Source: Armatimonadota bacterium
GTDB lineage: Bacteria; Vulcanimicrobiota; JACPDS01; JBDRKI01
Length of the DNA stretch: 64,000 bases
Direction of reading: 5' to 3'
Assembly: GCA_043814095.1 (NCBI GenBank)
Contig: JBDRKI010000037.1
Span: 1 to 64,000, forward strand
The position numbers were made by a program, and so were the translations under genes. This document shows, piece by piece, positions 11,258-47,390 of the stretch (position 1 is the stretch's first letter; each line of letters opens with the position of its first letter). The notes under the pieces are model-generated. The model ran no database searches. It was not told the origin of the DNA and saw only the letters and a list, made by a program, of their open reading frames with translations.

Positions 11258-11818
11258 TTAAATATTTTTCAATATCCATTTTACAGCCTGTTTCTGGCGC
11301 TGTAATCCTTCATTTGTTATCTCCGCCAGCTGTTCATAAGATACGGTGCTAGGGACACTGCCAGGATTAACGGCTTTATGCAGTTTTTTAACCTGAGCAG
11401 GGGTTACGGGTTTACGGTTTAATTCTTTTTTGAGGATAATAATTACAGATTTGTCTTTTTTAGCTAAATGTATCAGTTTAGCAGCGGCTTTTTTCCTTAC
11501 GTCGTCAGTACGTGAGGTAAGGTTATGTATTGAATTCATTATTACTTCATATTTTTTATTTAACCTGTTGATTTTTTCTTCTGTTAAAGTAGGATTGTTT
11601 TTAAGTGCCAGCTGCAGAAAATTTTTCCATTCACCTTTATCAATCTTGGCATTATTATTTTGATCAAAATAATTAAAAAGGCCGGCCAGTTTAGCCTTTG
11701 TTTCAGCTTTTAATTTGCTAATATCGATATTTTTACCTCCGCCTAGAGGGATGCTCTTTAATTTGCTTTTCGGGTTCCATACATCGAATATTTTAAAACC
11801 TGCATTGATTTTATCCAT
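11258..11818 (-). CDS. Hypothetical protein with EF-hand-like loop and HEAT-like helix pair; member of the GACCTATATT regulon
   Basis: FDQNNNAKIDKGEW loop; LTSRTDDVRKKAAAKL; GGAGG SD. Confidence 0.7.
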   Translation of the reverse strand: MDKINAGFKIFDVWNPKSKLKSIPLGGGKNIDISKLKAETKAKLAGLFNYFDQNNNAKIDKGEWKNFLQLALKNNPTLTEEKINRLNKKYEVIMNSIHNLTSRTDDVRKKAAAKLIHLAKKDKSVIIILKKELNRKPVTPAQVKKLHKAVNPGSVPSTVSYEQLAEITNEGLQRQKQAVKWILKNI

Positions 11819-11842
11819 AAAAACCTCCGTTTTTAATATCTT

Positions 11843-11901
11843 CCTAATTTAATTATACATAAAATATTTATTAATGAATATAGGTCGAAAGAACTAATTT
11901 A
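11843..11901 (-). promoter_or_regulatory. GACCTATATT-box promoter, copy 1
   Basis: Minus strand: GACCTATATT starts at 11886, TATAAT at 11857 (+29), TTAAATTAGG at 11852 (+34). Confidence 0.75.
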
Positions 11902-14208: not shown

Positions 14209-14241
14209 TAATATGTAATGTATATAAAATGGGGGGTAATT

Positions 14242-16169: not shown

Positions 16170-16250
16170 AAAAATACTCCATGTATCCTCTAAAAATACT
16201 CCTTTTGACCTATATTTTAATTCCTCATTTTGTTTTAAAGTTAAATTAGG
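16170..16250 (+). promoter_or_regulatory. GACCTATATT-box promoter, copy 2
   Basis: AAAAATACTCC at 16170 and 16192, GACCTATATT at 16207, TAAAGT at 16236 (+29), TTAAATTAGG at 16241. Confidence 0.8.
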
Positions 16251-16283: not shown

Positions 16284-17300
16284 ATGTCAGATGCTGTTTA
16301 CAGGGTCACACCTGTAAAGAGAATTGAGCTTCATGAAGGCACTCTTAGCAAGGCGCTTAATGCGTACAGCAGAACCGTAAAACTTCTGCCGAGAGCGCTG
16401 AAAGCGCCTTCAGTAAAGCCTTCTGGGGCGGGTATTTCCAGATTTGCTTTAAGAGTAATAGATAAACTGGGAGAGATAAGGCATATTTTAATTAAGGACG
16501 GGGGAGCATCTGAAAGAGCCGTGGATGAAGTGCTTGGCAAGCTGCTTGAAAAACGGGGGCTTTCATTTAAAGATCTTCCCAAGGCGGATATAAGGGTATT
16601 GAAAGAGCTGGATAAAGCTTTGACTTCAAGAAATGCTTTAAAAATAATAGTTGATGAAGTTAAACTGGTAATGCAGAGAAACTTGATTATAAAAGAAATA
16701 ATGGAGTTTATTAAATATCTAGCCGATAAATTGAAAATGACGCGTCAGGAAGTTTTCAATATGCTGAAAAATAATCTTAACCAGCTTTACAGGTATATAT
16801 CTGTTCAGTTGTCTGACGGCGGAGCGGATGAGGTTGAGATGCTTGCCATGCGCCGCAACCTTGAGGTTATACATAATTTACTTAATAATGTTGAAAATTT
16901 AACGGCAAAGACTCTCTCCAGATTTAGTGTAAGGGAATTAACCAGAATTTTAAGGGCCATAAAGAATACTATGGATGTTCAGACTATAAGAACGGCCGGG
17001 GCTGTAACAAATGTTTTAGTTATCGCCCAGCAGGAAGTTATAGTGCCTGCCGCAAGCGCTCTGGGAAGAGTTCTTTTAGGTGCAGGTGCCGTTACCGTGG
17101 GTGCTACGGTCGGCTGGATTGCCGGCAGGCTTATAGGAGAACACTTCTATATTAAAAACAATAAGGGTAAATATGTAAATGTAGATACCCATGTCCAGAA
17201 ATTCTTTGAAAATAAGATGGACTGGGCTTTGTTCGTGTCGCGCTATGATACCGAATGGGGTTCTGCCGCAAAAGACAAGTTATTTAAGAAGAAAAAGTAA
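16284..17300 (+). CDS. Hypothetical helical protein with C-terminal glycine-zipper hydrophobic segment (paralog A)
   Basis: LLGAGAVTVGATVGWIAGRLIG; ends VSRYDTEWGSAAK; AAGGAG SD; paralog of 31094..32164. Confidence 0.75.
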   Translation: MSDAVYRVTPVKRIELHEGTLSKALNAYSRTVKLLPRALKAPSVKPSGAGISRFALRVIDKLGEIRHILIKDGGASERAVDEVLGKLLEKRGLSFKDLPKADIRVLKELDKALTSRNALKIIVDEVKLVMQRNLIIKEIMEFIKYLADKLKMTRQEVFNMLKNNLNQLYRYISVQLSDGGADEVEMLAMRRNLEVIHNLLNNVENLTAKTLSRFSVRELTRILRAIKNTMDVQTIRTAGAVTNVLVIAQQEVIVPAASALGRVLLGAGAVTVGATVGWIAGRLIGEHFYIKNNKGKYVNVDTHVQKFFENKMDWALFVSRYDTEWGSAAKDKLFKKKK

Positions 17301-17329
17301 CAGAAAAATTTTAACAATAATAATCTTAA

Positions 17330-17362
17330 AGACCGCTTTTATAAAAAGGCGGTCTGTTTTTT
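17330..17362 (+). terminator. Intrinsic terminator
   Basis: AGACCGC...GCGGTCT stem followed by a T-run. Confidence 0.7.
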
Positions 17363-17469
17363 CTTCTTTTCTTCTTTTCTTTGTAATTAACAATAAAGGG
17401 AGAAATTCTTAATTGTGGAATAATTAAGTTTAAAAAATAATCTCACTTTGTTTCTAATGAGGATTTATT

Positions 17470-18027
17470 ATGAAAAGATGCCCGTGGCCTGGGGATGATG
17501 AGCTATACATAAAATACCATGATGAAGAATGGGGTGTCCCGGTTCATAATGACAGGAAGCATTTTGAATTTCTGGTTCTGGAATCGGCCCAGGCAGGATT
17601 AAGCTGGATAACTATACTGAGAAAAAGGGAGAATTACCGGGTTCTGTATGACAATTTTGATCCGGTAAAAGTTGCTAACTACGGCAAAAAGAAAATTGAC
17701 GAGCTTATCAAAAATGCGGGCATAATCAGGAACCGCAAGAAAATAGAAGCATCTGTAAATAACGCGAAAAGGTTTCTTGCAATTGTGGATGAGTTCGGCA
17801 GTTTTGATAAATATATATGGAAGTTTGTAAATTACAAGCCCGTTAAGAATAAGTGGAAGAATATATCCCGGATTCCGGCTAAAACGGAATTATCCGACAT
17901 GGTAAGCAATGATCTTAAGAAAAGAGGTTTTAAATTCCTGGGTTCTGTAATTATTTATGCCCATATGCAGGCAACAGGACTTGTAAATGACCATCTTATT
18001 TCATGCCACAGGTATAAAATCAAATAA
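17470..18027 (+). CDS. tag: DNA-3-methyladenine glycosylase I
   Basis: RCPW, YHDEEWGVP, LESAQAGLSW, GIIRNRKKI, GLVNDHLISC. Confidence 0.95.
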   Translation: MKRCPWPGDDELYIKYHDEEWGVPVHNDRKHFEFLVLESAQAGLSWITILRKRENYRVLYDNFDPVKVANYGKKKIDELIKNAGIIRNRKKIEASVNNAKRFLAIVDEFGSFDKYIWKFVNYKPVKNKWKNISRIPAKTELSDMVSNDLKKRGFKFLGSVIIYAHMQATGLVNDHLISCHRYKIK

Positions 18028-18045
18028 TAAATGAGGCATAATAAT

Positions 18046-19334
18046 ATGAACTTGTATAAAGAAATAATTAAAAATGAAGTATTTCCGGCCATGGGATGCA
18101 CAGAACCCATATCAATAGCGTACGCGGCATCCATTGCGGCAGAAGGCACGGGAGAGGTACCCGAAGAGCTCCTTATACTGGTTAACCAGGGCTCTTATAA
18201 GAACGGGCTTGCCGTTACAATACCAAATACGGGCGGGGAGAAAGGCACCTTATAGCAGGGATACTGGGTTCCCTTATTGTCAAACCCGAGCTTAAGATGG
18301 AGATATTAAAAGACGTTACTCCTTCAATTCTTGCAAATGCTAAAAAACTTGCCGGTAATAAAAAGTTTTCCATAAATGTTCACCCGCATATCCAGGAATT
18401 TTATGTTGAGGTACAGCTTAAGACAAAATCGCATAGTAACATATGTATAATATCGGGAAGCCATACTAACTGTGTTTATCTTGAGAAAAACGGGAAAGTA
18501 ATTATTGATAAACGCGGTGAGGTCCATGAAAAAGAATCAGCTTCCTATAAAGACAAGGTGAGGAATCTAACTCTTTCCGAGCTTGTTGATCTTGCGGAAA
18601 ATATTGATGAAAAGGACATGGAATATTTAAAAAAAGGCATAGAGATGAACATGGAAATATTCCGTGCGGGCCAGAAACTTAAAAAAATCGGCTGGTTCAT
18701 GACAGATCTCATTAATAAAAAAATGCTGCTGGACGATATATTTTCATCCACAAAAGTAATGGTTGCATGCGCGGTTGACGCGAGAATGGACGGTTTTCCG
18801 CTTCCCGCCATGGCAAGCGGCGGGAGCGGCAACCAGGGAATAGTTGCAACACTCGTCCCTTATAATGTTGGTAAGGAATTTAAAGTTGATGAAAAAGTAA
18901 TACTTAAAAGCATAGCTCTTTCACATGTATTAAATTCATATATTAAATGCTTTACAGGGGACCTTGCTCCTATATGCGGGTGCGCCATAGCGGCCGGGGT
19001 AGGGGCGGCAAGCGCAATTGTATACCAGCAGAAAGGCAAGGATATAGAATCTATAACGTTTGCCATAAACAACCTTATAAGCGACTTAGGCGGCATGTTA
19101 TGCGACGGGGCCAAAAGCGGGTGCGCGTTAAAGGTTGTAAGCTCAGCTGATGCGGCTATAAGATCGGGTTATCTTGGTATCCATAATTACGGCATCACAA
19201 GCATAGAAGGTTTTATAGGGGCAAGTGCTGAGGAAACCATAAGAAATTTAAATAAAATTACAAAAATAGGTATGGCAAATATGGATGATACCATAATAAA
19301 TATAATGCTTGAAAAAAGCCGTATAGGAGGATAA
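18046..19334 (+). pseudogene. L-cysteine desulfidase-like (YhaM/CyuA, UPF0597) gene split by a 1-bp frameshift near 18247
   Basis: PAMGCTEP in the 5' part; ARMDG...SGGSGNQG, CGC and GMLCDGAKSGCALK in the 3' part; adding one base gives continuous GEKG(N)LIAGILGSLIVKPELKMEIL. Confidence 0.8.
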
Positions 19335-19335
19335 G

Positions 19336-20355
19336 ATGGGAAAAGCTTTTAAGGTTTTAACCGGTTGTTTGATTGTTATTATGTTTATGGGATGTGTAAG
19401 TACTGTTTGTGCCCAGGAAAAGTGGGGATTTATAAACACATCGGGTGAAGAAGTTGTTTCTTTAAAATATGACACTGTTACTGATTTTGAAGACGGTTTT
19501 GCCGCTGTTGAGCTTAACGGCAAATGGGGATTTATAGATAAAACAGGGCAGGAAGTCGTCTCTGTTAAATACGACTCGGTAGGTACGGAAGATGTCTGCT
19601 TCAGTGAAGGGTTTGCCGCAGTAAAGATTGATGATAAATACGGTTTTGTAAATAAGAACGGGTCTCTTGTTATTGCCGCTAAATATGACAGTGTTAAAGA
19701 TTTCAAGGAAGGCCTTGCAGGTGTGGAACTTAACGGTCTCTGGGGCTTTATAGATACAACAGGCAGGGAGGTTATTCCTTTAGAATACGGTTTTGCCGAG
19801 GATTTCCAGGACGGTTTTTCAGCCGTTGAAAAAGAGACGCTATGGGGATTTATAGATAAGGCGGGAAATAAAGTTGTTCCTTTAAAATACGAGAACGCCT
19901 GGTCATTTACGGAAGGTCTTGCCGCTGTTGAGCTTAATGGGCAGTGGGGCTTTATAAATACAGCGGGTAAATTTGTTGTTCCTTTAAGATATGATGATGT
20001 GAATAATTTTTATGAGGGACTTGCCGTTGTTGAGCTTGACGGTAAATACGGTCTTGTAGATACAACCGGCAAAGACGTTGTATCTGCTAAGTACAGCAGT
20101 ATTAATAATTTTGCCGGAGGTTTTGCCGCTGTTGAACTTAATGAAAAATGGGGTTTTATAGATAAAACCGGGAAAGTTGCAGTAACAATAAAATATTACT
20201 CCGTAGAAGATTTCCATGAGGGACTGGCTTCTGTTGAGTTAAACGGCAAATACGGCTTTATAAATAATGCTGATGAGCAGGTTGTCCCCGTTGAATATGA
20301 TTACGCGTATTCTTTCAGCAACGGCATGGCCGCTGTTTTTCTTAATGATAAATAA
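19336..20355 (+). CDS. Secreted WG (KWG) repeat protein, truncated by an in-frame TAA
   Basis: Signal peptide; repeats F.EGLAAVELNGKWGFIDKTG; the repeat pattern continues in frame to TAA 20548-20550. Confidence 0.88.
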   Translation: MGKAFKVLTGCLIVIMFMGCVSTVCAQEKWGFINTSGEEVVSLKYDTVTDFEDGFAAVELNGKWGFIDKTGQEVVSVKYDSVGTEDVCFSEGFAAVKIDDKYGFVNKNGSLVIAAKYDSVKDFKEGLAGVELNGLWGFIDTTGREVIPLEYGFAEDFQDGFSAVEKETLWGFIDKAGNKVVPLKYENAWSFTEGLAAVELNGQWGFINTAGKFVVPLRYDDVNNFYEGLAVVELDGKYGLVDTTGKDVVSAKYSSINNFAGGFAAVELNEKWGFIDKTGKVAVTIKYYSVEDFHEGLASVELNGKYGFINNADEQVVPVEYDYAYSFSNGMAAVFLNDK

Positions 20356-20556
20356 GGTTTTGCGGACGTAACAGGGAAGCTCGCTGTCGGTTTGAAATAT
20401 GACAGTGTTCTGAGTTTTACTGACGGGCTCGGAGCTGTTGAGATTGAAAATAAATGGGGTTTTGTTGATAAAACGGGAAATCTTACGGTTCTCCTTAAAT
20501 ACAGTGAAGTAAATATATTTAAAGAAGGGCTTGCACGGGTAAAGAAATAAAAACTT

Positions 20557-22410
20557 TTATTGACTCGCCGGCAGTCTTACATAGAATTTTGATCCTTTTC
20601 CCGGGGTGCTTTCACATAATATCTTGCCATTGTGGGCTTCTATGATTTTTCTGCAGATGTAAAGGCCGTTGCCGAGACCTTCGAATCTTCTTGTTGATGA
20701 CATATCAACCTGGTAGAATGGATCAAATATTTTTTTAATCTGATCTTCAGATATGCCTATCCCGTGATCTTCGAATACGATGTTAATCATTTTAATATTA
20801 TCTTTTTTAGTAAATCCTATCGATATATTTATGTTCCCGCCCTCCGGTGAGAATTTAACGGCATTATCGAGTATATGGCGGAAACAGTGTGTCAGTTTAT
20901 CTCTGTCGGCGTTTACCGTTAACTGTATTCCCGGAGATGTTTCTGCGACATTAATGCTTATAACATTGGGAACCCCGCGCTGCCTTATATTCTCGGCTTC
21001 TTCCCTTATAATCGCTTCAATGTTGCAGATACCGTAATTTATCTGTTTCTCAACGCCTTCTATGTCATTAACTACGAAAAGATCATATATAAGCATATTT
21101 AAATGCTTTGATTCTCTGGCAATTACATTTAAGCTTTCGGAAACTGTTTCATTTTGGGTAGAATCAAGTTCATCTTTTAAAAGATCATTGTACCCGGTTA
21201 TCATTGTGACAGGTGTCATAAGTTCGTGTGATATAGATGCAAGGAAGATTTCCCTTTTTTTCTGTTCCTCAAAGAGCTGTTCTATATAATCCTCAATAGC
21301 GTTACCCATAACGTTAAACGCATGAGATAGTTTTCTTATCTCAAGAATTCCTTTTTTATCATCTAGGCGGGCTTCAAAATTTCCCTGTGCGAAGTTTTCG
21401 GTTTGTTTTACAAGCTCTGATACGGGTGAAAGTGAATTCCCGATAATTATAATAATGAGTATAATAAGGAATAAAATTACTATTGCAGAAGCAATAATAG
21501 TGATACTTGTATATTTTACAAGCGGCCCGAATACAGCCGTGCTTGATTCAACGATTATAAGGTCCCAGTTGGTCCCTGTTATGGGACTTACCGCCATACA
21601 TGATAGTTTGCCGGTGAACGGGTCCTTGATATTTTCCAGAAGAGCATCTTTGTCCCGGTGTATAGCTCCTATGAAACGTCTCATATCAGGGTTTTTAGAT
21701 AAATCTTTTAGATTGAAAATTGATTCAGTTGAAATTAAGTTTTTCATGGGATGAGCAATAAGATGACCTTTTTTATCAACAATAAACCCGTAGCCGGTAG
21801 CGCCTATCTGCAGGGATTTAAGTTTTCTTATCATGGAATCCAGAGAAACATCTACGGTGGCAACTCCTTTAATCTTGCCGCCTCTTACAACAGGCACGGA
21901 ATAGGTTATCATAAGTTTATTCCCGCCGCCTTCATCATAATAGGGCTGTGACCATATCCCTTTATTTTGCTTAACAGCTTTGGTAAACCACGGTTTATTC
22001 ACATAATCGTATGAAGGCGTATTAAGAGATGTGTATTTAGTTTGATCTCCTGATTTATAATAATAAGGGGAGTATAATCCCAAAGAAGTTTCTGAAGGTA
22101 TAAGCGCGAGGGTTGAACCGTAAATACTAGGATTTTTTTGCAGGGTTTTGTATATTATATCCCTTATATTCTTATCGGTAAAATTCGGGAGAACTTCATA
22201 AGTATTTGCCATCCCTTCAGCTATTTTTTCAGCCATAGCTATAAGGCCTGAAAATTCGCACGCATAGTAGGTGCTTACAGATTCGGCTTCATACTTGATT
22301 CGTTTTAAGAGAGTATCTTTAGAAATTGTATAATTAACAAATACAACAAGCCCGAATAATAATATAATAATGGGAATAAGTATTAATAAAAGTTTTTTTC
22401 TTAAACTCAT
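20557..22410 (-). CDS. Sensor histidine kinase (dCache-HAMP-HisKA-HATPase)
   Basis: Cache motifs PWFTKA, WSQPYYD, GVATVD; ASISHELMTP; DNAVKFS, DHGIGI, FYQVD, GLGNGL. Confidence 0.92.
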   Translation of the reverse strand: MSLRKKLLLILIPIIILLFGLVVFVNYTISKDTLLKRIKYEAESVSTYYACEFSGLIAMAEKIAEGMANTYEVLPNFTDKNIRDIIYKTLQKNPSIYGSTLALIPSETSLGLYSPYYYKSGDQTKYTSLNTPSYDYVNKPWFTKAVKQNKGIWSQPYYDEGGGNKLMITYSVPVVRGGKIKGVATVDVSLDSMIRKLKSLQIGATGYGFIVDKKGHLIAHPMKNLISTESIFNLKDLSKNPDMRRFIGAIHRDKDALLENIKDPFTGKLSCMAVSPITGTNWDLIIVESSTAVFGPLVKYTSITIIASAIVILFLIILIIIIIGNSLSPVSELVKQTENFAQGNFEARLDDKKGILEIRKLSHAFNVMGNAIEDYIEQLFEEQKKREIFLASISHELMTPVTMITGYNDLLKDELDSTQNETVSESLNVIARESKHLNMLIYDLFVVNDIEGVEKQINYGICNIEAIIREEAENIRQRGVPNVISINVAETSPGIQLTVNADRDKLTHCFRHILDNAVKFSPEGGNINISIGFTKKDNIKMINIVFEDHGIGISEDQIKKIFDPFYQVDMSSTRRFEGLGNGLYICRKIIEAHNGKILCESTPGKGSKFYVRLPASQ

Positions 22411-22463
22411 AAAAATAAAATTCCAGATGAATTATAAAACACCTTTTTATAGTATTGTTTAAA

Positions 22464-22490
22464 AGGATTAAATTTTATCTATGAAGAATT
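22464..22490 (+). promoter_or_regulatory. SigH-like promoter
   Basis: AGGATTA at 22464, GAATT at 22486. Confidence 0.5.
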
Positions 22491-22498
22491 AAAGCTTT

Positions 22499-23644
22499 AT
22501 GAATAAAGACATATGGAAAGACAGGCTATACGCGGTATGCTTTGCCATAGGCGTGCTGGTTCTTGTTTTTATTATTCTGCGGCTTTTAAGTTCTGTTAAA
22601 ATCGTTGTTGTAATGCTTGCGATCTCAATACTCCTTGCCTATATTCTGGTCCCGGCTGTCAGGTTCTTCAATTCTCCCATTGTGATTATTTATCCGGGGT
22701 ATATATCGTTTTTCAGAAAAAAGATTAAGCTTTCCAAAGAGAAAAAAATTATATTGAAAAAAGAAGGATTTCCTAAGATACTGGCAATTTCAATAGTATA
22801 TATTTTCTTACTGGTATTACTCTGGATCTCGGTATCGTATGTTCTTCCGAAGATAGCTTTTGAGTTTCAAAAATTTAAATATAATCTGCCCCAGCTTCAT
22901 TTAGATATGAAGACATCCTTTAAGAGTATTTCGGCATGGCTTGACTCAAAACTCCCATCTTATTTTTCAAGATCCGTTCTGCCCCAGGTAATAGATACTT
23001 TTCTTACGGAAGTTAAAAATATGGGGCTGGGTATTTTGCGCCAGACCGTGCCGATTGTAATAAGGATATTTTCTAATGTAGCCATAGCCCTTATTATACC
23101 GCTTCTTACCTTTTATATACTTATGGACGCGGATAAATACAGAAAAGGGTTTATGAGTTTAATACCCGCCCGCAGGAGGGAAGATACATCAGAGCTTTTA
23201 AAGAAAATTGACCTTGTTTTAGGAAGATTTATAAGGGGGCAGTTGATTGTCTGCTTTTGTATAGGCGTATCGGTAACGATTGTCTTAAAGCTGTGGGGGA
23301 TTGAATACGCATTTTTAATCGGTGTCTTCTCAGGGATTGTGGAAATAATACCCTATGTGGGTGTTGTGGTAAGTATGGTTCCTGCCGTTCTGCTTGCTCT
23401 TTTAAAGTCTCCCTGGATCGCTCTGGGAGTATTCGCGACCTTAATAGCGCTTCACTGGTCTGAAGGCCATATTATTATCCCGTTAGTTGTGGGTCAGGTA
23501 GTGGGCCTCCCTCCTCTTGTTATAATAGTAGCTCTTTTGGTAGGCGCCGAACTTATGGGTATCCCGGGCATGTTTTTAGCGGTTCCTGCCGCAGCTGTTA
23601 TAAGGGTGGTGCTGAACCATTACCTTGAGAAGTTGAAAAACTGA
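22499..23644 (+). CDS. AI-2E (PerM/TqsA) family transporter
   Basis: LAYILVPAV, RFIRGQL, IPYVG, GIPGMFLAVP. Confidence 0.9.
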   Translation: MNKDIWKDRLYAVCFAIGVLVLVFIILRLLSSVKIVVVMLAISILLAYILVPAVRFFNSPIVIIYPGYISFFRKKIKLSKEKKIILKKEGFPKILAISIVYIFLLVLLWISVSYVLPKIAFEFQKFKYNLPQLHLDMKTSFKSISAWLDSKLPSYFSRSVLPQVIDTFLTEVKNMGLGILRQTVPIVIRIFSNVAIALIIPLLTFYILMDADKYRKGFMSLIPARRREDTSELLKKIDLVLGRFIRGQLIVCFCIGVSVTIVLKLWGIEYAFLIGVFSGIVEIIPYVGVVVSMVPAVLLALLKSPWIALGVFATLIALHWSEGHIIIPLVVGQVVGLPPLVIIVALLVGAELMGIPGMFLAVPAAAVIRVVLNHYLEKLKN

Positions 23645-23804
23645 CCTTTATTAGAAGCTGCAAAAAAATATTTTTCTTAAATTTAAATATTTTCTTTCAT
23701 TAATTTCCATATCAAAAATCGCTGGGGAAGGGTTTTTTATATTTTACAAGAAATTTAAATAAATTAAGCTTTATATGTTTTTAAAAAAATAAGGAGAGTG
23801 AAGA

Positions 23805-26800
23805 ATGAGAAAAACAAATTTATTTTTAGTACTTGCCTTTCTTATGGTGCTTGTCGCGCAGCCGGTTTTTTCCGCTGCTGACGCGAATGTCGCCATTACT
23901 AATCCGCCGGTAAACAGTTCTGTATATCCGGGGCAGGATTTAAGTATAACTGTCAGTATAAATCCCGCGGTTGTAGAGGTAGCCCAAAAACTGCTTGTCA
24001 GCATAGTGCAGAATAATTCTACTATCGTTCAAACAATAATTGCCGGTCCTCAGGCTAATAATAATGTAAGATTGCAGATACCCGGTAATGCGGCGCTTGG
24101 AAACGCGTCCATAAAGGCTTATCTGTCGACCAGTCGGGCCGTGGAAAATTTTGAAACCTCCATGCCTATAAGAATTGACAGAATTGACGCCGATCTTCGC
24201 ATTACAAGCCCCGCGCCAAACGCGCCGGTAAATCAGGGTCAGAACGTTCCCGTTGCAGTTACAATGAACAGGGAAGCCGCGGGCTTTGCGGCCAAACTGG
24301 TCGTTAAGATAGTGCAGAATAACTCTGCGATTGCACAAACTGTTGTTGCCAACCCCCAGGCAAATAACAGGATTAACCTGCAACTGCCAGCGAACGCGGC
24401 CGTAGGCAACGCTTCAATAGAAGCATATATTGCTCCCTCCGACAATTTAAATAATCACAGTGTTGCTATCCCGATAAGGATAAGCGGTGTTAATGCCAAC
24501 CTGCGCATTACTTCCCCCGCGGCCAATACAGTGGTATATCCGGGTCAGAGCTTAAATGTCGGGCTTGCAATTAATCAGGAAGCTGTCGGTGTAGCCAACA
24601 GGATTGCCGTACTGATTAACCAGAACAACCGCACTATACTGCAGACTAACATTAATAATCCGGGACAGGTTAATAATGTTAGGATAGAGGTTCCAGAAAA
24701 TATAGAGCTCGGCCAAGCTGATATTCAGGCATTTGTATATCCTACGGAGATTTTAGAAAATCATAGAGCTTTAGTTCGTCTAACTGTAAGCAAGGTTGAC
24801 GCCGGGCTTCAGATTACAAGGCCTGCGGCAAATACTTCTGTTTCTCAGGGTGAGAATGTGAGTATTACTGTAGCCATGAACAGGGAAGCCGTCGGCGCGG
24901 TAAACAGGATTCTTGTAAGAATTTATCAGAATAACAGATCAGTGGTGCAGGAAATTATAAATAATCCGCGTTCCGCCGCGAATACGGTTACACTGCAGCT
25001 TCCCGCGAATGCGGCTGCCGGGAACGCGTCAATTCAGGCATTTGCTTATCCGAATAACATTTTAACTCATTTCAGCGCTTCACTGCCGATAAGTGTAGGC
25101 GCGGTTGATGCCGGTTTAAGGATAACGGGTCCCGCTGCTAATTCAAGCATATATTTAGAGCAGGATGTTCCTGTTACGGTTAATATGAACAGGGATGCTG
25201 TGGGTACTGCCCATAGATTACTTGTTAAGATAGAGAAAAACAATACTGTGGTGGCGCAGACCGTTGTTAATAATCCCCAGACAGTCAACCGTGTTACCCT
25301 GCATGTTCCCGGTAATACGGTTTTAGGTCCTGTTGTCATAAGGGCTGTTGTTGAGCCCGAAGGTATGAGTAATTCCAATGTTTCAATACCCATTGCCGTT
25401 GAGAAAGCCGATGCGGGTGTTCAGATTGTAAGACCTGCCGCCAATGAGGTAATATCACCGGATCAGGATATTGATATTTTAGTTAATATGAACGCCGTAG
25501 CAGTCGGTATAGCCAGCAGTATGGATATCGCTTTAATGCAGGGCGGGCGCATACTTGCCCGGACATCGGTTAATAATCCCCGCACTGCCACGCGTGTAAC
25601 CCTGCATGTTCCGGCTAATGCCGCTGTGGGCGAGGCTAATATCCAGGCGGTTGTGAGTCCCAGTAACAGTCTTAATAACCGCAACGCTCTGGTGAATGTA
25701 AGTATAAATAAAGTTAATGCTAATCTGCGGATAACATCTCCCAATGCAAATGCCAATCTGTTACAGGGACAGGATGTGCCTATAACGGTTGTTATGAACC
25801 GCGAAGCACAGGGAGTAGCCGAGAGTATGCGGGTCAGGATAGAACAGAACGGTGTCGCCATAGCGCAAACCGTCATAAATAATCCACAGATAACTAACAG
25901 GGTAACTTTACATGTTCCGGCAAATGCCGCTGTACGCAATGCATCAATACAGGCATTTGTATATCCGTCAGAAAGAATGATAGGACACAGTGCAGCCATC
26001 CCGGTTAATATAGGCAGTGTCAATGCCAATCTGCGCATTACTTCTCCCGCGGCTGATGCTGTTATATATCCGGGCCAGAGTTTAAATGTCGGGCTTACCA
26101 TTAATCCGGAAGCAGTTGGTATAGCTGACAGGATTCACGTAACGCTGACACAGAATGGCCGCAGTATAGTGCAAACTGATATTAATAATCCCAGACAGGT
26201 AAATAATATAACGATAGAGATTCCCGCGGATGCCGCTCTTGGCGAAGCAACTGTTAACGCTTTTGTGTATCCTTTGGATAATTTGGGTAATCACAGTGCC
26301 TTAGTGCGGTTAACTGTAAGCAAGATTGATGCAGGGCTTCAGATTACAAGGCCTGCGGCAAATACTTCTGTTTCTCAGGGTGAGAATGTGAGTATTACGG
26401 TAGCCATGAACAGGGATGCCGTCGGTGCAGTAAACAGGATTCTTGTAAGAATTTATCAGAATAACAGATCAATTGTCCAGAAAATTATAAATAATCCGCG
26501 TTCCGCCGCGAGTACGGTTACACTGCAGCTGCCTGCGAATGCGGCTGCCGGGAACGCGTCAATTCAGGCATTTGCTTATCCGAATAACATTTTAACTCAT
26601 TTCAGCGCTTCACTGCCGATAAGCGTGGGCGCGGTTGATGCCGGTTTAAGGATAACGGGTCCTGCTGCGAATTCCAGCATATATTTAGAGCAGGATGTTC
26701 CCGTAACGGTTACGATGAACAGGGATGCAGTAGGTACTGCTCAGAGATTACTTGTTAAGATAGAGAAGAACAATAATGTGGTTGCGCAGACTGTAGTTAA

Positions 26801-28469
26801 TAATCCCCAGACAAGCAACCGTGTAACCCTGCATGTTCCCGGTAATACGGTTTTAGGTCCTGTTGTTATCAGAGCCATTGTGGAGCCTGAAGGTATGAGT
26901 AATTCCAATGTTTCAATACCTGTTGCCGTTGAGAAAGCGAATGCTAATCTTCAGATAACAAGGCCTGCCGCCAACGCGGTAATATCGCCTGACCAGGATA
27001 TAGATGTTTCGGTTACCATGAATGCGGAGGCTGTCGGTATAGTTAACAGGATGGAGATAGCTTTAATGCAGGGAGGGCGCATACTTGTCCGGACATCGGT
27101 TGATAATCCGCGCACTGCGACCCGTGTAACTCTCCATGTTCCGGCTAATATCGCTGCGGGGGAGGCCAATATCCAGGCGGTTGTGAGCCCTAGTAACAGT
27201 CTTAATGGCCGCAACGCTCTGGTTAATGTAAGTATAAACGCGGTTGATGCCGGTTTAAGGATAACAGAGCCGGTTATTAATACTGCGTTGTTCCAGGGCC
27301 AGGAAGTACCTGTTGTAGTTACGATGAACAAGGACGCGCTTGATACTGCAGAGAGAATACTTGTAAGGATTGTACAGAACAATCAGACGCTTGTGCAGAC
27401 AAATATCAACAATCCGCGTATAAGCAACCGTATTACTTTAACTGTGCCGGCTAATGCCGCCGGAGGCAATGCTTTCATACAGGCAGTAGCCTATCCTACT
27501 GAGAGAATGAGGAATTATAATGTTGTCATCCCCGTAAGAATTAATACAGTTGACGCTAACCTGCAGATTACTTCCCCTGCAGGGAACACAGTTATGTTCC
27601 CCGGTCAGGATTTAGTTGTCAGAGTTACCATGAACGCCGATGCGGTAGGTATAGCCGAGAGACTGATTGTAAGTATCAATCAGAATAACAGAAACATAGC
27701 TGAAACCGTTGTGGATAACCCCAGGCAGACAAGCAATGTAAGGATACAGATACCGGCTAATACAGCCGTCGGAAACGCTTTAATACGGGCGGTTGTAGAG
27801 CCTTCAGCAAGAATGAATAGGAACAGTGTCTCAATACCTATCCAAGTTAACGTAGTGGATGCGGCTATGGTTATCTCAAGACCTGCCGCCAATGCGACTG
27901 TTTATAAAGGATTGGAAGCAGACATAACAGTAGCCATAAACAGGGCGGCTGTTGATACCGCAGAGAGAATTCTTGTAAGGATTGTGCAGAATAATAATAC
28001 TTTGGTTGAAACTATGGTAAATAACCCGCAAGCGGTAAACAGGGTTAATCTCGTTATACCTGTTAATGCCTCTCTCGGTAATGCCGTGATTCAATCATTT
28101 GTATATCCTGCAGAGAGAATGAGCAATAACAGAGCAACTTCTAATATTACGATAGCCAAATTTAATCCCAGCTTAAGATTTGTAAGACCTCCTTCCAATA
28201 CAAATGTAAGGCGCGGGCATGAATTTAATGTCAGTGTGGCAATGGACCGTCAGGCTATCGGTATTTCTACCAGATTGCAGGTCAGGATAGAACAAAATAA
28301 CAGAGTAATTGTCAGTGTTAACATAGATAATCCTCAAGTATCAAATGATGTTGTGCTCCAGGTGCCGGCTAATGCCGCGCCTGGAAATGTTACATTGAAA
28401 GCAGAGCTATATCCTGCCGCGAACTTTGAAGGGAACACCGTTACCAGGCCTATAACTATTGTCAGATAG
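23805..28469 (+). CDS. Large secreted surface protein, 15 tandem ~102-aa Ig-like repeats
   Basis: 24-aa signal peptide plus 15 x 102 aa = 1554 aa; repeat consensus DA.L.IT.PA.N....GQ...V.V.MN..A.G.A.R......QNN. Confidence 0.85.
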   Translation: MRKTNLFLVLAFLMVLVAQPVFSAADANVAITNPPVNSSVYPGQDLSITVSINPAVVEVAQKLLVSIVQNNSTIVQTIIAGPQANNNVRLQIPGNAALGNASIKAYLSTSRAVENFETSMPIRIDRIDADLRITSPAPNAPVNQGQNVPVAVTMNREAAGFAAKLVVKIVQNNSAIAQTVVANPQANNRINLQLPANAAVGNASIEAYIAPSDNLNNHSVAIPIRISGVNANLRITSPAANTVVYPGQSLNVGLAINQEAVGVANRIAVLINQNNRTILQTNINNPGQVNNVRIEVPENIELGQADIQAFVYPTEILENHRALVRLTVSKVDAGLQITRPAANTSVSQGENVSITVAMNREAVGAVNRILVRIYQNNRSVVQEIINNPRSAANTVTLQLPANAAAGNASIQAFAYPNNILTHFSASLPISVGAVDAGLRITGPAANSSIYLEQDVPVTVNMNRDAVGTAHRLLVKIEKNNTVVAQTVVNNPQTVNRVTLHVPGNTVLGPVVIRAVVEPEGMSNSNVSIPIAVEKADAGVQIVRPAANEVISPDQDIDILVNMNAVAVGIASSMDIALMQGGRILARTSVNNPRTATRVTLHVPANAAVGEANIQAVVSPSNSLNNRNALVNVSINKVNANLRITSPNANANLLQGQDVPITVVMNREAQGVAESMRVRIEQNGVAIAQTVINNPQITNRVTLHVPANAAVRNASIQAFVYPSERMIGHSAAIPVNIGSVNANLRITSPAADAVIYPGQSLNVGLTINPEAVGIADRIHVTLTQNGRSIVQTDINNPRQVNNITIEIPADAALGEATVNAFVYPLDNLGNHSALVRLTVSKIDAGLQITRPAANTSVSQGENVSITVAMNRDAVGAVNRILVRIYQNNRSIVQKIINNPRSAASTVTLQLPANAAAGNASIQAFAYPNNILTHFSASLPISVGAVDAGLRITGPAANSSIYLEQDVPVTVTMNRDAVGTAQRLLVKIEKNNNVVAQTVVNNPQTSNRVTLHVPGNTVLGPVVIRAIVEPEGMSNSNVSIPVAVEKANANLQITRPAANAVISPDQDIDVSVTMNAEAVGIVNRMEIALMQGGRILVRTSVDNPRTATRVTLHVPANIAAGEANIQAVVSPSNSLNGRNALVNVSINAVDAGLRITEPVINTALFQGQEVPVVVTMNKDALDTAERILVRIVQNNQTLVQTNINNPRISNRITLTVPANAAGGNAFIQAVAYPTERMRNYNVVIPVRINTVDANLQITSPAGNTVMFPGQDLVVRVTMNADAVGIAERLIVSINQNNRNIAETVVDNPRQTSNVRIQIPANTAVGNALIRAVVEPSARMNRNSVSIPIQVNVVDAAMVISRPAANATVYKGLEADITVAINRAAVDTAERILVRIVQNNNTLVETMVNNPQAVNRVNLVIPVNASLGNAVIQSFVYPAERMSNNRATSNITIAKFNPSLRFVRPPSNTNVRRGHEFNVSVAMDRQAIGISTRLQVRIEQNNRVIVSVNIDNPQVSNDVVLQVPANAAPGNVTLKAELYPAANFEGNTVTRPITIVR
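24489..27548 (+). repeat. Intragenic 1530-bp (5-repeat) tandem duplication
   Basis: Same sequences recur at +1530 (24489/26019, 24811/26341); repeats 4-6 and 9-11 nearly identical at DNA level. Confidence 0.85.
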
Positions 28470-28507
28470 GGTTTTGGTCCTGAAGTTAAAATAGAAAGTA
28501 TAAGATA

Positions 28508-28543
28508 AAGCAGGGACTGTGCATATATGAACAGTCCCTGCTT
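28508..28543. terminator. Bidirectional terminator
   Basis: AAGCAGGGACTGT-10 nt-ACAGTCCCTGCTT between convergent genes. Confidence 0.8.
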
Positions 28544-28598
28544 ATTTTCTTAATTAAAATCTTTCTTTCTTTCTTTCTTTCTCTTGTTTTTTTATTAT

Positions 28599-29987
28599 TT
28601 ACGCTTTTACTTTTTTACCAGCAGGTGCAAGGTGAGCAGTAAAATGCCTTAAAAAAGGCGCATGGTAGGTTACGGCATATCCCTTTAATTTATCTTTATT
28701 CTTTAATACTTCTTCTGTAACTTCTATAAGGTAATCAACATGGCTCTGGGTATATACTCTTCTGGGGAATGCAAGCCTTACAAGCTCCATGTGTGATGGT
28801 ATAAGTTTTTCTTCTTTATCGTATTTACCGAACATTAAAGAACCGATCTCAACCGCGCGCACTCCGCCTTCTATATATAATGCGTTGCAGAGCGCTATGC
28901 CAGGGTATTCATGGGGAGGTATATGGGGAAGCATCTCTTTTGCGTCAATATAAACGGCATGACCTCCCACCGGCCTTATAATCGGGATGCCTGCTTTTAA
29001 TATTTTTTCGCCGAAATATTCAACTGATCTTATGCGGTATCTCATGTAATCTTCTTCAAGAACTTCTTTTAAGCCAACTGCCATTGCGGCGAGATCGCGT
29101 CCTGCAAGGCCGCCGTAGGTGGGGAACCCTTCTGTAAGTATAAGGAGGTTTCTGCATTCCATGGCGAGAGTATCATCATTTACCGCAAGAAATCCTCCTA
29201 TATTTACAAGGGCGTCTTTTTTGGCGCTCATTGTGCATCCGTCGGCATAAGAGAACATCTCTTGGGCTATCTCAAGAAGACTCTTATTCTCATAACCCTT
29301 TCCCCTTTTCTTAATGAAATAGGCATTTTCGGCAAACCTGCATGCATCTATATAGAAGGGGATAGAGTGTGATTTTGCTATATGCGAAACCTCTTTTATA
29401 TTCTCCATTGATACCGGCTGGCCGCCTCCGGAATTATTAGTGACTGTTATCATAATGGCGGGTATATTTTCCCTGCCTTTCTCTTTTATAAATACTTCCA
29501 GTTTTTTAGTATCCATATTGCCCTTAAACGGATGTTCAAGGGAAGGTATTTTTCCTTCGTCAATCACTAAATCAACAGCTTCGGCACCGGTATATTCCAC
29601 ATTGGCTCTTGTTGTGTCAAAATGGGTATTATTGGGTATGGCTTTTCCTTTGCCGCCGATTATGGAAAAAAGTATCTTCTCTGCCGATCTTCCCTGATGG
29701 GTAGGTATTATATTTTTAAAGCCGGTAATATCTTTAACCGCGCTTTCAAATTCATAGAAAGATTCACCCCCCGCGTAGGATTCGTCGCCCTTCATTATTG
29801 CGGCCCACTGGTTAGCGCTCATGGCGCTTGTTCCGCTGTCCGTTAAAAGATCAATCATTACATCACGAGCTTTTATCATAAAGACATTGTAACGGGCTTC
29901 CTCCAGAATCTTCTCCCTCTGTTCGCGGGTGGTCATTTGAATGGGCTCTACGGTTTTAATTTTAAAGGGTTCAATAATTGTTTTCAT
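28599..29987 (-). CDS. tnaA: Tryptophanase (beta-eliminating lyase)
   Basis: EPFKIKTVE, DLLTDSGT, THQGR, SAKKD PLP site; C-terminal LRHFTA (His as in tryptophanase; tyrosine phenol-lyase has Phe). Confidence 0.85.
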   Translation of the reverse strand: MKTIIEPFKIKTVEPIQMTTREQREKILEEARYNVFMIKARDVMIDLLTDSGTSAMSANQWAAIMKGDESYAGGESFYEFESAVKDITGFKNIIPTHQGRSAEKILFSIIGGKGKAIPNNTHFDTTRANVEYTGAEAVDLVIDEGKIPSLEHPFKGNMDTKKLEVFIKEKGRENIPAIMITVTNNSGGGQPVSMENIKEVSHIAKSHSIPFYIDACRFAENAYFIKKRGKGYENKSLLEIAQEMFSYADGCTMSAKKDALVNIGGFLAVNDDTLAMECRNLLILTEGFPTYGGLAGRDLAAMAVGLKEVLEEDYMRYRIRSVEYFGEKILKAGIPIIRPVGGHAVYIDAKEMLPHIPPHEYPGIALCNALYIEGGVRAVEIGSLMFGKYDKEEKLIPSHMELVRLAFPRRVYTQSHVDYLIEVTEEVLKNKDKLKGYAVTYHAPFLRHFTAHLAPAGKKVKA

Positions 29988-30139
29988 AATTTAAGCTCCT
30001 TAAATTAAATATAGGTTTATTGACAGGTGTCTGGTTTTAATTAAATAGAAGGCTTTGTTTTTCCTGCAACAAAAGGTATTTATATTAAAACAGCAAAATA
30101 TTATATAAAGTTTTATCCTGAAAATAAGGATGTTTTTAA

Positions 30140-30976
30140 TTGAATAGAAAGTTTCACATATTATTAATAGTTATTTCATTTATTATCCTTTTCCTTATTC
30201 TTCCGGTATATACTGCTGATATTATTGAAGAAGCCGAATCATGGGAGAAAGGGCGTTATGAGGATATTTATAAACAGAGAGATGTTCCAGTATATAAATA
30301 CAAAGTAATTAAACAATATAACCATAACGAATCATATTTTACAGAAGGATTTGTATTTGATAAAGGTATATTATATGAAAGCACCGGGTTATGGAATAAA
30401 TCAAAACTTGTTAAATATAATATTATAACCGGCAAAGTTATAAAAGAAAGTAAGCTTAGGCCTAAATATTTTGGTGAAGGCATTACTGTTATAGGGGATG
30501 ATATATTCCAGATTACTTACCGGTCTAATACGGGATTTGTATATGATAAGAACACATTTAAATTAAAGAAAACATTCAGCTACCCGTCTGAAGGATGGGG
30601 GCTTACAACAGACGGCAAGAGCCTTATTATGAGCAACGGTTCATCATCCCTTATCTTTCTTGATCCGGTAACTTTTAAGGTTAAAAAATATGTAAAAGTT
30701 TTAGATAAAACAGGCCAGGTAGGCAACTTAAATGAACTTGAATATATTAAAGGTAATATTTACGCTAATATCTGGCATACAGACCTTATTGCTATAATAT
30801 CTCCAGATACGGGCGCTGTAACGGGATGGATAGATCTTACAGGCATAAATCCCGATAAGGACAAGACAGATGACTCTTTTGTTCTTAACGGCATAGCATA
30901 TAATCATAAAACGGGACATATCTTAATAACCGGTAAATGCTGGCCAAAAATCTATGAAATAGAGCTTATCAGGTAA
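30140..30976 (+). CDS. Glutaminyl-peptide cyclotransferase, exported (beta-propeller type)
   Basis: FTEG, LYESTG, FGEGIT, EGWGLT, LNELEY, VLNGIA, TGKCW; TTG start and signal peptide. Confidence 0.9.
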   Translation: MNRKFHILLIVISFIILFLILPVYTADIIEEAESWEKGRYEDIYKQRDVPVYKYKVIKQYNHNESYFTEGFVFDKGILYESTGLWNKSKLVKYNIITGKVIKESKLRPKYFGEGITVIGDDIFQITYRSNTGFVYDKNTFKLKKTFSYPSEGWGLTTDGKSLIMSNGSSSLIFLDPVTFKVKKYVKVLDKTGQVGNLNELEYIKGNIYANIWHTDLIAIISPDTGAVTGWIDLTGINPDKDKTDDSFVLNGIAYNHKTGHILITGKCWPKIYEIELIR

Positions 30977-31055
30977 AAATACTTCTTTTATCAACAAAAA
31001 ATACTCCTTTTGACCTATATTATATATCATCATTCCGCCTTAAAATTAAATTAGG
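30975..31055 (+). promoter_or_regulatory. GACCTATATT-box promoter, copy 3
   Basis: AAAAATACT(T/C)C at 30975 and 30997, GACCTATATT at 31012, TAAAAT at 31041 (+29), TTAAATTAGG at 31046. Confidence 0.8.
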
Positions 31056-31093
31056 AGATAAATATCCTATTTACATTAAAGCGGAGTTGATTT

Positions 31094-32164
31094 ATGGGAA
31101 ACGGCCAGATAAGCGGTATAGGCAGCGTAGGAAATGTAGCCAATATGTATAATATTTTTAAGCCTCCTGTCAGCTTGGGTTCCGGCGGCACAGCGGCAAT
31201 GAAGAGTTATGTTTCATCAGGTACTGTAGATACTTCAACTATAAGTCAAGAGGGACAAAAATATTTGAGGGCATTTAAAGAAGTAAGGAGTAATATTATA
31301 GAAATAGGCCGGCCTTTTAAAGAGGCTGCGAAAACGGCCGGCAATGATCTTAAAAAAGATGTTAACAGTTCATACCTGAAAACAATTAATGAATGGCTGA
31401 AAAGGAATTTTAACGGCGCTACTCTTAATAAATTAAAAGATTTGAGTACTGAAAGCCTGCAGAAAATAAATAATGCGCTGAGGACTAAAGCGGGAGGACT
31501 GGGAAGAATGCTGACCGATCCCCTGGTAAGAGTGAAAAATGCCGTATCATCGGAAAAGTCAATATGGAAAATAGCAGGTCATATAAGAAAAATAGCGGCA
31601 GAACTTAAGATGCCGAAGAGTGAAGTCTGGAAGCTTGTAAGGAGTAATATAGGCAAGGTCGACAGCCGGGCCTGTACAAACAGCCAGAATTATAATTTAT
31701 CCGTAATTAGCAATGTATTGAGAAATACGGGCGGAAAAATTACAGGCGGAACTCTTAGGGCTCTTTCCAGAATAGATTTGAATTCACTCCAGAATTTTGA
31801 AAAAGCTTTTCTGGAAGGCGTAAAAACTCAAACTCTAACTGTTCAGCAGGCAGGCCGTAATATTTCTTCAACCGTAATGAATTTAGGTGGAAAAGAAATT
31901 GCTATTCCGGCGATGAGCGCTTTAGTGCAGGCTCTTCACGCTTCTGCGGGCGCTTCGGCAGGGGCTACTGCCGCAGGAGTTACGGTTGCCGCGGTAGGCG
32001 GATGGTACATCGGCCGGGGTATAGGCAATATACCCATAGGAAACGGCAGGAAAGTGGATAATGCAATAGAGGACTTTCTGAAAAAGCATAAAATAGATGG
32101 TGTTTCATATCATGATACTCAGTGGGGAGATTCAGCGAAAAAATACATTAAAGACAATAAATAA
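31094..32164 (+). CDS. Hypothetical helical protein with C-terminal glycine zipper (paralog B)
   Basis: AGASAGATAAGVTVAAVGGWYIGRGIG; ends VSYHDTQWGDSAK; paralog of 16284..17300. Confidence 0.75.
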   Translation: MGNGQISGIGSVGNVANMYNIFKPPVSLGSGGTAAMKSYVSSGTVDTSTISQEGQKYLRAFKEVRSNIIEIGRPFKEAAKTAGNDLKKDVNSSYLKTINEWLKRNFNGATLNKLKDLSTESLQKINNALRTKAGGLGRMLTDPLVRVKNAVSSEKSIWKIAGHIRKIAAELKMPKSEVWKLVRSNIGKVDSRACTNSQNYNLSVISNVLRNTGGKITGGTLRALSRIDLNSLQNFEKAFLEGVKTQTLTVQQAGRNISSTVMNLGGKEIAIPAMSALVQALHASAGASAGATAAGVTVAAVGGWYIGRGIGNIPIGNGRKVDNAIEDFLKKHKIDGVSYHDTQWGDSAKKYIKDNK

Positions 32165-32275
32165 AATACAAAAATAAAAAAACAAACCTTTAAGTTTAAA
32201 GAAGCAGGTAAATTTACCCGCTTCTTTAATTATTATAAGGGAATATATTAAAAAAACTGTTAGATAAGGTGATTT

Positions 32276-47305: not shown

Positions 47306-47366
47306 AAAAATACTCCAAAAGACCTATATTATTAGCTTGATTTTTGTTTTATAATATAATTGAAGG
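47306..47366 (+). promoter_or_regulatory. GACCTATATT-box promoter, copy 4
   Basis: AAAAATACTCC at 47306, GACCTATATT at 47321, TATAAT at 47350 (+29). Confidence 0.78.
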
Positions 47367-47390
47367 AAATAAACATAGGGAGGTATTTAT

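Follow-up and report, generated by a model that had tools for sequence, protein, structure and literature searches.

How do two genes 15 kb apart come to carry nearly the same upstream region, and what might their products do? The question is raised by a stretch of 64,000 nucleotides (nt) from the genome of an Armatimonadota bacterium (positions 1 to 64,000 of contig JBDRKI010000037.1; hereafter the window), in which open reading frames (ORFs) 16284-17300 and 31094-32164, here called genes A and B, encode basic proteins with a glycine zipper near the C-terminus. A first-pass annotation, made from the sequence alone, had taken them for co-regulated paralogs resembling pore-forming toxins or translocators. 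Examination of the genome (2.5 Mb, 98.97% complete, from a bacterium found in groundwater metagenomes according to the run labels) showed A and B to be members of a large, lineage-specific, activator-type regulon in which secreted, surface and orphan proteins abound; the promoter element they share marks membership of this regulon rather than a dedicated two-gene system. As for function, we propose, tentatively and as a possibility short of a probable one, that both are Sec-independent exported proteins that insert into membranes, perhaps leaving the cell via a flagellar-type type III apparatus.

Both ORFs proved open as annotated, and the peptide pairs quoted for them were present in the translations. 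BLASTP aligned residues 136-330 of A with residues 157-349 of B (61 identities in 213 positions, 29%; E = 2e-11). In tblastn comparisons with the whole genome, each protein matched its paralog and nothing else (E = 8.6e-8 and 1e-11), any further match having an E of at least 0.36, and a profile of the shared part, run against 23,196 six-frame ORFs, recovered A and B only (next E = 0.74). The paralogy asserted by the annotation is genuine and far exceeds what chance would give.

The family to which the pair belongs is very rare and new to every library searched. A profile search of 1.84 billion cluster representatives rendered seven proteins at E <= 1e-3: A, B, four full-length relatives (P0003-P0006; 331-350 amino acids, E = 1.2e-43 to 1.4e-18) and P0007, an acidic protein of 380 amino acids that has only the zipper-plus-hairpin module in common with the family (E = 5.8e-5 over 58 positions). 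All five relatives derive from Logan contigs of 1.2-9.2 kb; four are singletons, while the cluster of P0007 has two members. The six full-length proteins could be aligned end to end, with identities to A of 25-43% and 23 invariant columns (including G277, G281, R282, G285, V300, D301, W325 and G326 in A numbering). A word-index homology search of 5.77 billion proteins returned only the A and B queries themselves, and pattern searches of genome contigs with A and P0003, and of metagenome contigs with P0005 and P0006, gave 599 and 474 pattern matches, respectively, with no relatives among either. No credible relative was found in 40 genomes of the phylum: B matched none, and a match of A in one of them (E = 0.0048, with four in-frame stops) was taken as chance. 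The lineage is an isolated one, as just one of these 40 genomes belongs to the same order. Pfam, NCBIfam and PHROGs showed nothing above noise for A, B or any of the six members; the Pfam families Gly-zipper_Omp, Gly-zipper_YMGG, Rick_17kDa_Anti and transglycosylase-associated gave no match at E <= 1 with A or B, nor at E <= 0.1 with the six members. The claim of a new family was therefore upheld in these libraries, as it was in the Protein Data Bank (PDB) sequence and fold searches described below.

The regions upstream of A and B show 69% column identity over ∼130 nt and contain a 25-mer, including TACTCC and TTGACC, that is the same in both genes; no such match arose in 100 shuffles. At both genes TTGACC is followed 25 nt later by a -10-like hexamer and then by TAAATTAGG, bases that are also conserved 3′ of the -10 box in the other promoters bearing the element. 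For gene A, the script took a tied hexamer at 23 nt instead of the one listed in Table 1. The main copy is preceded, at a distance of 22 nt, by a half-copy of the element (AAAAATACTCC at A, AAAAATACTTC at B), an arrangement that points to an activator binding in tandem. TTGACC was considered as a -35 box and rejected, because its distance to the -10 hexamer is 25 nt instead of 16-18 nt; the element is therefore an upstream one, located at about -38 to -63. This position fits the docking of a transcription activator, for which the element is a probable site. A second candidate, a sigma-28 (flagellar late) promoter, came to mind on account of CCGATAT-like bases, and was rejected as well: no FliA was found in the genome above the cut-off (best score 53 bits, cut-off 189.6), and this idea does not explain why TATAAT and TAAATTAGG are conserved 25 nt downstream.

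The element is not confined to the two genes. A degenerate 19-mer drawn from it, TACTCCNTTTGACCKATAT (copies at 16197-16215 for A and 31002-31020 for B), had 27 exact copies in the genome, while its reversed control had none and the other 40 genomes of the phylum had none either; the 20-base core, allowing up to four mismatches, occurred at 72 genome sites. The near-identical promoters described by the annotation are thus confirmed down to an exact 25-mer; the notion of a co-regulated pair has to be widened, the element being common to ∼45 further genes.

Genes were assigned to the regulon if the element was followed by a -10-like hexamer 20-32 nt downstream and then by an ORF. A pilin-like secreted family accounted for 16 of the genes so found; the rest were 40 other ORFs, nine of which were dropped: five were ORFs of 41-82 codons in the leaders of pilin-like genes, and four had weak or oddly spaced sites. 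One of the latter was a FliK-like gene on contig C55, with a four-mismatch site, odd spacing and a place in an operon with TTAACA arrays; its product matched Flg_hook with 24.9 bits, against a cut-off of 29.8. There remained 31 genes, termed class 2, A and B among them, and in 25 of their promoters the distance between TTGACC and the -10 hexamer is exactly 25 nt. Judged by a crude hydropathy rule, 26 of the 31 products lack a Sec-type hydrophobic N-terminus, and only one of the 19 Sec-less proteins scanned contained a Pfam family above cut-off, a 464-residue SLT lytic transglycosylase without a signal peptide. Duplication inside the regulon is common, for further paralog pairs were found in it: the products of C120:5557-8241 and C122:9004-10680 (894 and 558 amino acids; 26% identity, E = 3.5e-40), those of C102:137424-142223 and C102:145260-148310 (1,599 and 1,016 amino acids; 38% identity), and two proteins of 159 and 179 amino acids encoded within C119:16561-17694 (E = 2.6e-4).

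The pilin-like proteins (152-161 amino acids) are encoded at about 16 or more loci, for example C5:24863-25339, C28:16278-16757 and C55:322-807. Their promoters contain poly-G tracts of ∼7-14 G between the element and the -10 box, and the spacing ranges from 22 to 28 nt because the length of the tract varies. The fim promoters of Bordetella likewise combine an activator site with a homopolymer spacer. The likeness extends to the activator-type element, placed at a constant spacing ahead of the -10 box, and, in the pilin-like branch, to the poly-G tract that varies this spacing; A and B differ in having no homopolymer tract and a spacing fixed at 25 nt.

The proteins themselves are built of three parts: a short conserved tip at the N-terminus that gives way to a disordered, Gly-rich stretch; a strongly basic helical domain (residues ∼50-230); and a C-terminal module. 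In this module a weakly hydrophobic Gly/Ala stretch ends in an invariant G[WV]xxGRxxG zipper, after which come a short hairpin, a helix and Trp-Gly, also invariant. The annotation had described both as basic and helical with one Gly/Ala-rich stretch, and this was borne out: the isoelectric point (pI) is 9.97 for A and 10.04 for B, the models are helical, and each protein has one uncharged Gly/Ala-rich segment, with a Kyte-Doolittle 19-residue maximum of 1.77 (A) or 1.32 (B). Neither has an N-terminal hydrophobic signal. Within the segment, A and B contain (G/A/S)xxxGxxxG zippers; this motif, ending in G[WV]xxGRxxG, is found in all six members (G277, G281 and G285 are invariant), and P0007 also has a zipper, which makes the feature both real and general to the family. 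Two other descriptions needed adjustment. In the proposed DTxWG tail, the Trp and Gly are invariant and the other positions are not, and the N-termini, said to differ between A and B, can be aligned across the six members, if poorly. Their first ∼15 residues follow a loose pattern (Met-Ser-Asp/Asn or Met-Gly-Asn, then Ile/Val and a Pro/Gly-Arg-Val-like sequence) that leads into the variable Gly-rich stretch.

These traits are maintained across the six members, with pI values of 9.6-10.2, a net charge of +8 to +21 in the N-terminal part, and one of -2 to +11, mostly non-negative, in the tail after the zipper. The hydrophobicity maximum ranges from 1.27 to 1.96, and is below 1.6 in three members; five have a charge-free stretch of 19-39 residues (39 in B, 28 in P0004). 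Such marginal values fit conditional rather than constitutive membrane insertion. They bear also on a different view, namely that A and B are soluble cytoplasmic proteins whose basic domain binds nucleic acid or another polyanion, the Gly/Ala stretch being a flexible or self-associating linker. Soluble proteins would accord with a pI of ∼10 in all six members, with a hydrophobicity that is sub-threshold in half of them, and with the lack of a confident AlphaFold transmembrane helix at the stretch. Nevertheless, a run of 19-39 residues free of charge in five of six members is not what such a linker leads one to expect; the glycines at i, i+4 and i+8 are strictly conserved, a pattern that belongs to the packing of membrane helices and not to linkers, and the module is conserved by itself in the otherwise unrelated acidic protein P0007. 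We therefore regard a purely soluble role as highly improbable.

Structure prediction was informative for the helical domain only. A single-sequence AlphaFold model had a pLDDT (predicted local distance difference test) of 45; with a six-row alignment the mean rose to 60 (predicted TM-score, pTM, 0.49), with values of 70-90 at residues ∼50-230, the sole confident part. As far as about residue 250 the models consist of helices only. Searched against the PDB, Foldseek returned nothing at E <= 0.001; the highest Z obtained with VIA-align, for which 48,161 chains were compared, was 6.6 (dynamin-like stalks), under the noise level that the tool states for helical models, and the best profile match among PDB sequences was a designed helical protein (E = 0.017). 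An Atlas search reached a best score of 0.80. The oligomer modelling suggested with the annotation, run with four copies of residues 236-338 of A, gave a complex score of 0.01, which counts neither for nor against oligomerisation.

Glycine zippers occur in a number of membrane toxins, among them CdzC/CdzD of Caulobacter, the type VII secretion system (T7SS) LXG effectors TelE and EsxX, and Tse4, as described in excerpts of the corresponding reports (PMC5380434, PMC10434224, PMC12744356, PMC10240207). Could A and B be antibacterial toxins of this kind, depolarising the membranes of competitors? Like these toxins they have a (G/A/S)xxxGxxxG motif, here invariant, in a hydrophobic stretch rich in small residues near the C-terminus, and the proteins are basic, with a helical N-terminal part and no Sec signal. 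The arrangement of a helical N-domain and a C-terminal zipper is loosely like that of LXG-type effectors, as far as excerpts of those studies describe it (PMC10434224, PMC12744356), and a set of two paralogs recalls the two-protein CdzC/D bacteriocin in the excerpted account (PMC5380434). Against this, A and B have no sequence similarity to these toxins, and no LXG, other toxin or trafficking domain was found at E <= 0.1 in any of the six members. The A/B zipper contains an invariant Arg, unlike those of the toxins, and is followed by a conserved hairpin-helix-WG tail. We know of no report of such a tail for CdzC/CdzD, TelE, EsxX or Tse4. Conservation in the family is highest at the C-terminus, the N-terminus being variable; to our knowledge polymorphic toxins show the opposite pattern, a conserved N-terminus and a variable C-terminus.

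The gene layout argues against toxins too. A and B are monocistronic, each with its own promoter and terminator, and lie 15 kb apart rather than in one operon. Neighbour genes and gaps were inspected for an immunity-type or chaperone-type partner and none was found, because the neighbours are unrelated enzymes and the gaps of 112-212 nt are occupied by a promoter or terminator, leaving no room for one; on this point the annotation, which had seen no adjacent immunity gene, was right. The flanking genes encode a double caspase-like lipoprotein, a 3-methyladenine glycosylase (Tag), a serine dehydratase subunit, a glutamine cyclotransferase, a Zincin_1 peptidase and a beta-propeller protein. Among the genes of dedicated delivery systems, the search covered the type VI secretion system (T6SS) sheath gene TssC (PF05943), for which the genome gave no match. 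With no toxin match in sequence or fold, the pore-forming toxin of the annotation finds no support, and the antibacterial reading is considered very unlikely.

The main alternative, for which no immunity gene is needed, is that A and B are resident inner-membrane proteins, the Gly/Ala stretch forming a hairpin or C-terminal anchor and the basic domain acting as a cytoplasmic scaffold or regulator of an envelope or surface programme controlled by the regulon. The absence of a signal peptide from both proteins and their monocistronic arrangement agree with this, as does the positive-inside rule, given the charges of the N-terminal part and the tail in all six members; in B and P0004 the uncharged stretch is long enough for a hairpin. 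What speaks against residency is that the stretch has only marginal hydrophobicity if it is to be a constitutive membrane helix, that the zipper contains an invariant Arg, and that a conserved extreme N-terminus with a disordered Gly-rich leader would have no obvious role. This alternative seems plausible enough to keep in view, if rather doubtful.

The proposal that A and B are exported draws on a further feature of the genome. A cluster on contig C54 contains, in order, flgB, flgC, fliE, fliF, fliG, fliH, fliI, fliJ, a gene for an SLT enzyme, fliK, a 273-codon FlgE/F/G-like gene, fliM, fliN, fliO, fliP, fliR, flhB and flhA. Together with a second locus (on contig C55; Table 1), this provides the export gate, ATPase, MS ring, C ring and rod genes, all of flagellar rather than injectisome type; the FlhA protein matched flagellar FlhA proteins of many phyla with 42-49% identity over its full length, and one further sequence with 61% over a partial match (residues 15-467). 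On the other hand, flagellin, FliS, FliD_C, FlgI and MotA_ExbB, representing filament, chaperone, cap, P-ring and stator, gave no match in this nearly complete genome. The basal-body and export gene set is complete and has the look of a flagellum pared down to an export machine. In a sample of the phylum, FHIPEP (FlhA) was present in 41 of 41 genomes and flagellin in 14. A literature search on Armatimonadota, flagellar and type III secretion returned only an unrelated hot-spring survey, and nothing on filament-less systems in the phylum. Some other observations concern these genes. The cytoplasmic domain of FlhA occurs alone in proteins of many genomes of the phylum, with up to 18 FHIPEP matches per genome, and two such proteins are encoded here (C4:6190-7566 and C67:7431-8699). 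Directly downstream of flhA, C54:1909-7269 (minus strand) encodes a Met-zincin of 820 residues (DUF4953/DUF5117) and a protein of 950 residues without a family; neither has an obvious signal peptide in its first 50 residues, and both could be cargo of the apparatus.

According to our proposal, an activator at the conserved element and its half-copy would switch on A and B together with ∼45 other genes, since the position of the element fits an activator docking site. The proteins would be made in soluble form and, lacking a Sec signal, would exit the cytoplasm by a different route. The filament-less flagellar-type type III apparatus would be the most plausible one, and other Sec-less orphan proteins of the regulon may share it. 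The glycine zipper would then insert and self-associate in the membrane of a target cell or in the cell's own surface. From the marginal hydrophobicity, the high pI and the lack of a signal peptide and of an immunity gene, we infer Sec-less export and zipper-mediated insertion; the route of export and the oligomerisation of A and B are likewise putative.

If Sec-less proteins of the regulon leave by a common route, their N-termini may be of interest. In residues 2-25, the 26 Sec-less class-2 proteins had a higher fraction of Ser, Thr, Asn, Pro, Gly and Gln than 1,178 other Sec-less proteins of the genome (0.389 versus 0.300; P = 0.002) and a lower fraction of Leu (0.043 versus 0.088; P = 4e-5). 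Ile-Asn was present within the first nine residues in 9/26 versus 80/1,178 proteins (P = 5e-5), and Ile-(Asn/Ser/Thr/Asp)-Pro in 6/26 versus 17/1,178 (P = 4e-6), both patterns having been picked post hoc, with one start codon shifted by eye. An Ile-Asn-Pro tip after Met and one to four residues was seen in otherwise unrelated Sec-less regulon proteins (for example C52:12338-12511, C119:16561-17100, C123:8210-8824 and C7:1705-3264), three of which share identical tip codons.

Several points weigh against the proposal. The N-terminal compositional bias is equally expected from any disordered N-terminus, and neither A nor B has the Ile-Asn pattern, B having only Ile-Ser. Ordinary Sec-dependent proteins are also members of the regulon, so membership does not imply unusual export. 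The operons of the apparatus are preceded by TTAACA arrays and not by the regulon element; rows of (G/T)TAACA boxes stand before both, at C54:23612-23900 and C55:15511-15800 (minus strand). Since the upstream signatures differ, the regulon and the export machine are controlled separately, which is no more than compatible with a substrate relationship. No result links A and B to the apparatus, either physically or genetically. The C-terminal module is modelled with a pLDDT below 50 and thus gives no structural support for a pore, and the strongly positive N-terminal domain equally fits the cytoplasm-facing domain of an inner-membrane protein.

The presence of a filament-less flagellar-type export system lends indirect plausibility to the word translocator used in the annotation. 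Hydrophobic translocators of type III secretion comprise the YopD/IpaC/SipC class, and HrpK1 (PF16937) is a further example. A and B are similar to these in size (330-360 amino acids), in being helical with one Gly/Ala-rich hydrophobic region and no Sec signal, and in that a type III export apparatus is encoded in the same genome. They differ in lacking any Pfam or NCBIfam match and an adjacent chaperone gene, and the apparatus here is of flagellar type, not an injectisome. In the Atlas search HrpK1 appeared as one cluster at rank 16 with a feature score of 0.75, a result within chance.

Export of non-flagellar proteins by a flagellar system via an N-terminal signal has been described for Campylobacter jejuni, as excerpts of the reports relate (PMC2764114, PMC5223770). 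As far as these excerpts go, the Cia and Fed proteins resemble the set considered here in being unrelated small Sec-less proteins with an N-terminal export determinant and a regulon apart from the basal-body operons, export being putative in the present case. C. jejuni, however, has a complete flagellum and uses sigma-28 to drive the Cia and Fed genes; here no flagellin was found and no FliA above cut-off, and the promoters consist of a -10 box plus an upstream activator-type element. A further comparison is with Buchnera aphidicola, for whose filament-less flagellar basal bodies a protein-export role has been proposed, according to an excerpt of the report (PMC8109811). As in Buchnera, basal-body and export genes are kept and filament genes were not found. 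Buchnera is a reduced insect endosymbiont, whereas the organism studied here is a groundwater bacterium with a 2.5-Mb genome that keeps the C ring and two FliK-like rulers. A bolder extension of our proposal would make this flagellum, which lacks filament, cap, P-ring and stator, a protein-secretion machine, with ∼26 Sec-less regulon proteins as its substrates and A and B as pore-forming or translocator parts. A and B are the only Sec-less regulon proteins with a conserved glycine-zipper membrane module. We consider this extension unlikely at present.

The features of the window and of the flagellar-type loci are collected in Table 1. The terminator-like hairpin 3′ of gene B was read by eye; the consensus scan made no call there, and after gene B found just one weaker site, within the next gene. 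Contigs of an RNA library (one metatranscriptome) were identical to 16504-16817 within gene A and to parts of further genes nearby in the region, a weak hint that gene A is transcribed, as DNA carry-over is possible in such contigs and the start site is invisible in them. The sequencing runs covered small shares of the region (0.09-0.14 of words), the uncovered parts being uninformative. Two more genes of the promoter class lie in the window. The product of 11258-11818 (minus strand) has sub-threshold EF-hand matches (E = 1.2e-4), and its N-terminal part is similar to the one encoded by C31:30249-30542 (48% over 27 amino acids, E = 6.7e-4); the product of 47391-47990 (plus strand) weakly matches, below threshold, the Bacillus HBL enterotoxin family (E = 0.012; 15.8 bits, cut-off 29.1), which is a lead only. 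The caspase-like lipoprotein-type protein (14218-16071, plus strand) has two Peptidase_C14 domains and a run of ∼14 Gly/Ser after the lipobox Cys; a related lipoprotein gene at C75:50029-51003 has the regulon element.

Table 1. Features of genes A and B, of further regulon genes in the window, and of the flagellar-type loci. Coordinates are those of the window unless a contig (C54, C55) is given.
Feature	Position	Strand	Remarks
Gene A	16284..17300	+	338 amino acids; disordered N-terminus, basic helical domain, C-terminal glycine-zipper module
Gene B	31094..32164	+	356 amino acids; paralog of A
Half-copy of element, gene A	16170..16180	+	AAAAATACTCC; 22 nt before main copy
Regulon element, gene A	16192..16216	+	25-mer incl. 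TACTCC and TTGACC; exact match to copy at gene B
-10-like hexamer, gene A	16236..16241	+	TAAAGT; 25 nt after TTGACC; then TAAATTAGG
Hydrophobic Gly/Ala segment of A	17037..17138	+	codons for residues 252-285; ends GWIAGRLIG
Intrinsic terminator, gene A	17330..17355	+	11-bp stem, then T run
Half-copy of element, gene B	30975..30985	+	AAAAATACTTC; 22-nt arrangement as at gene A
Regulon element, gene B	30997..31021	+	25-mer; exact match to copy at gene A
-10-like hexamer, gene B	31041..31046	+	TAAAAT; 25 nt after TTGACC; then TAAATTAGG
Uncharged 39-residue Gly/Ala/Ser stretch of B	31898..32026	+	codons for residues 269-311; ends GWYIGRGIG
Terminator-like hairpin, gene B	32200..32225	+	read by eye
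Third promoter-class gene	11258..11901	-	gene 11258-11818, 186 amino acids, no Sec signal; element 11877-11901
Fourth promoter-class gene	47306..47990	+	gene 47391-47990, 199 amino acids, no Sec signal; element 47306-47330
Flagellar-type cluster	C54:7432-23611		basal-body and export genes incl. full FlhA
FlgF, FlgG and second FliK-like gene	C55:11839-15531		

Taken alone, A and B are one more orphan glycine-zipper family; their value comes from the regulon and the export genes around them. If this flagellum were indeed a secretion machine, it would be an injectisome-like system evolved independently from the flagellum, with a wholly new set of effectors. Should the regulon proteins prove to be substrates, the bacterium would offer, beyond the insect endosymbionts, an example of flagellar re-use for secretion that is open to test, and the membrane-active parts of such a system would be sought first in A and B.

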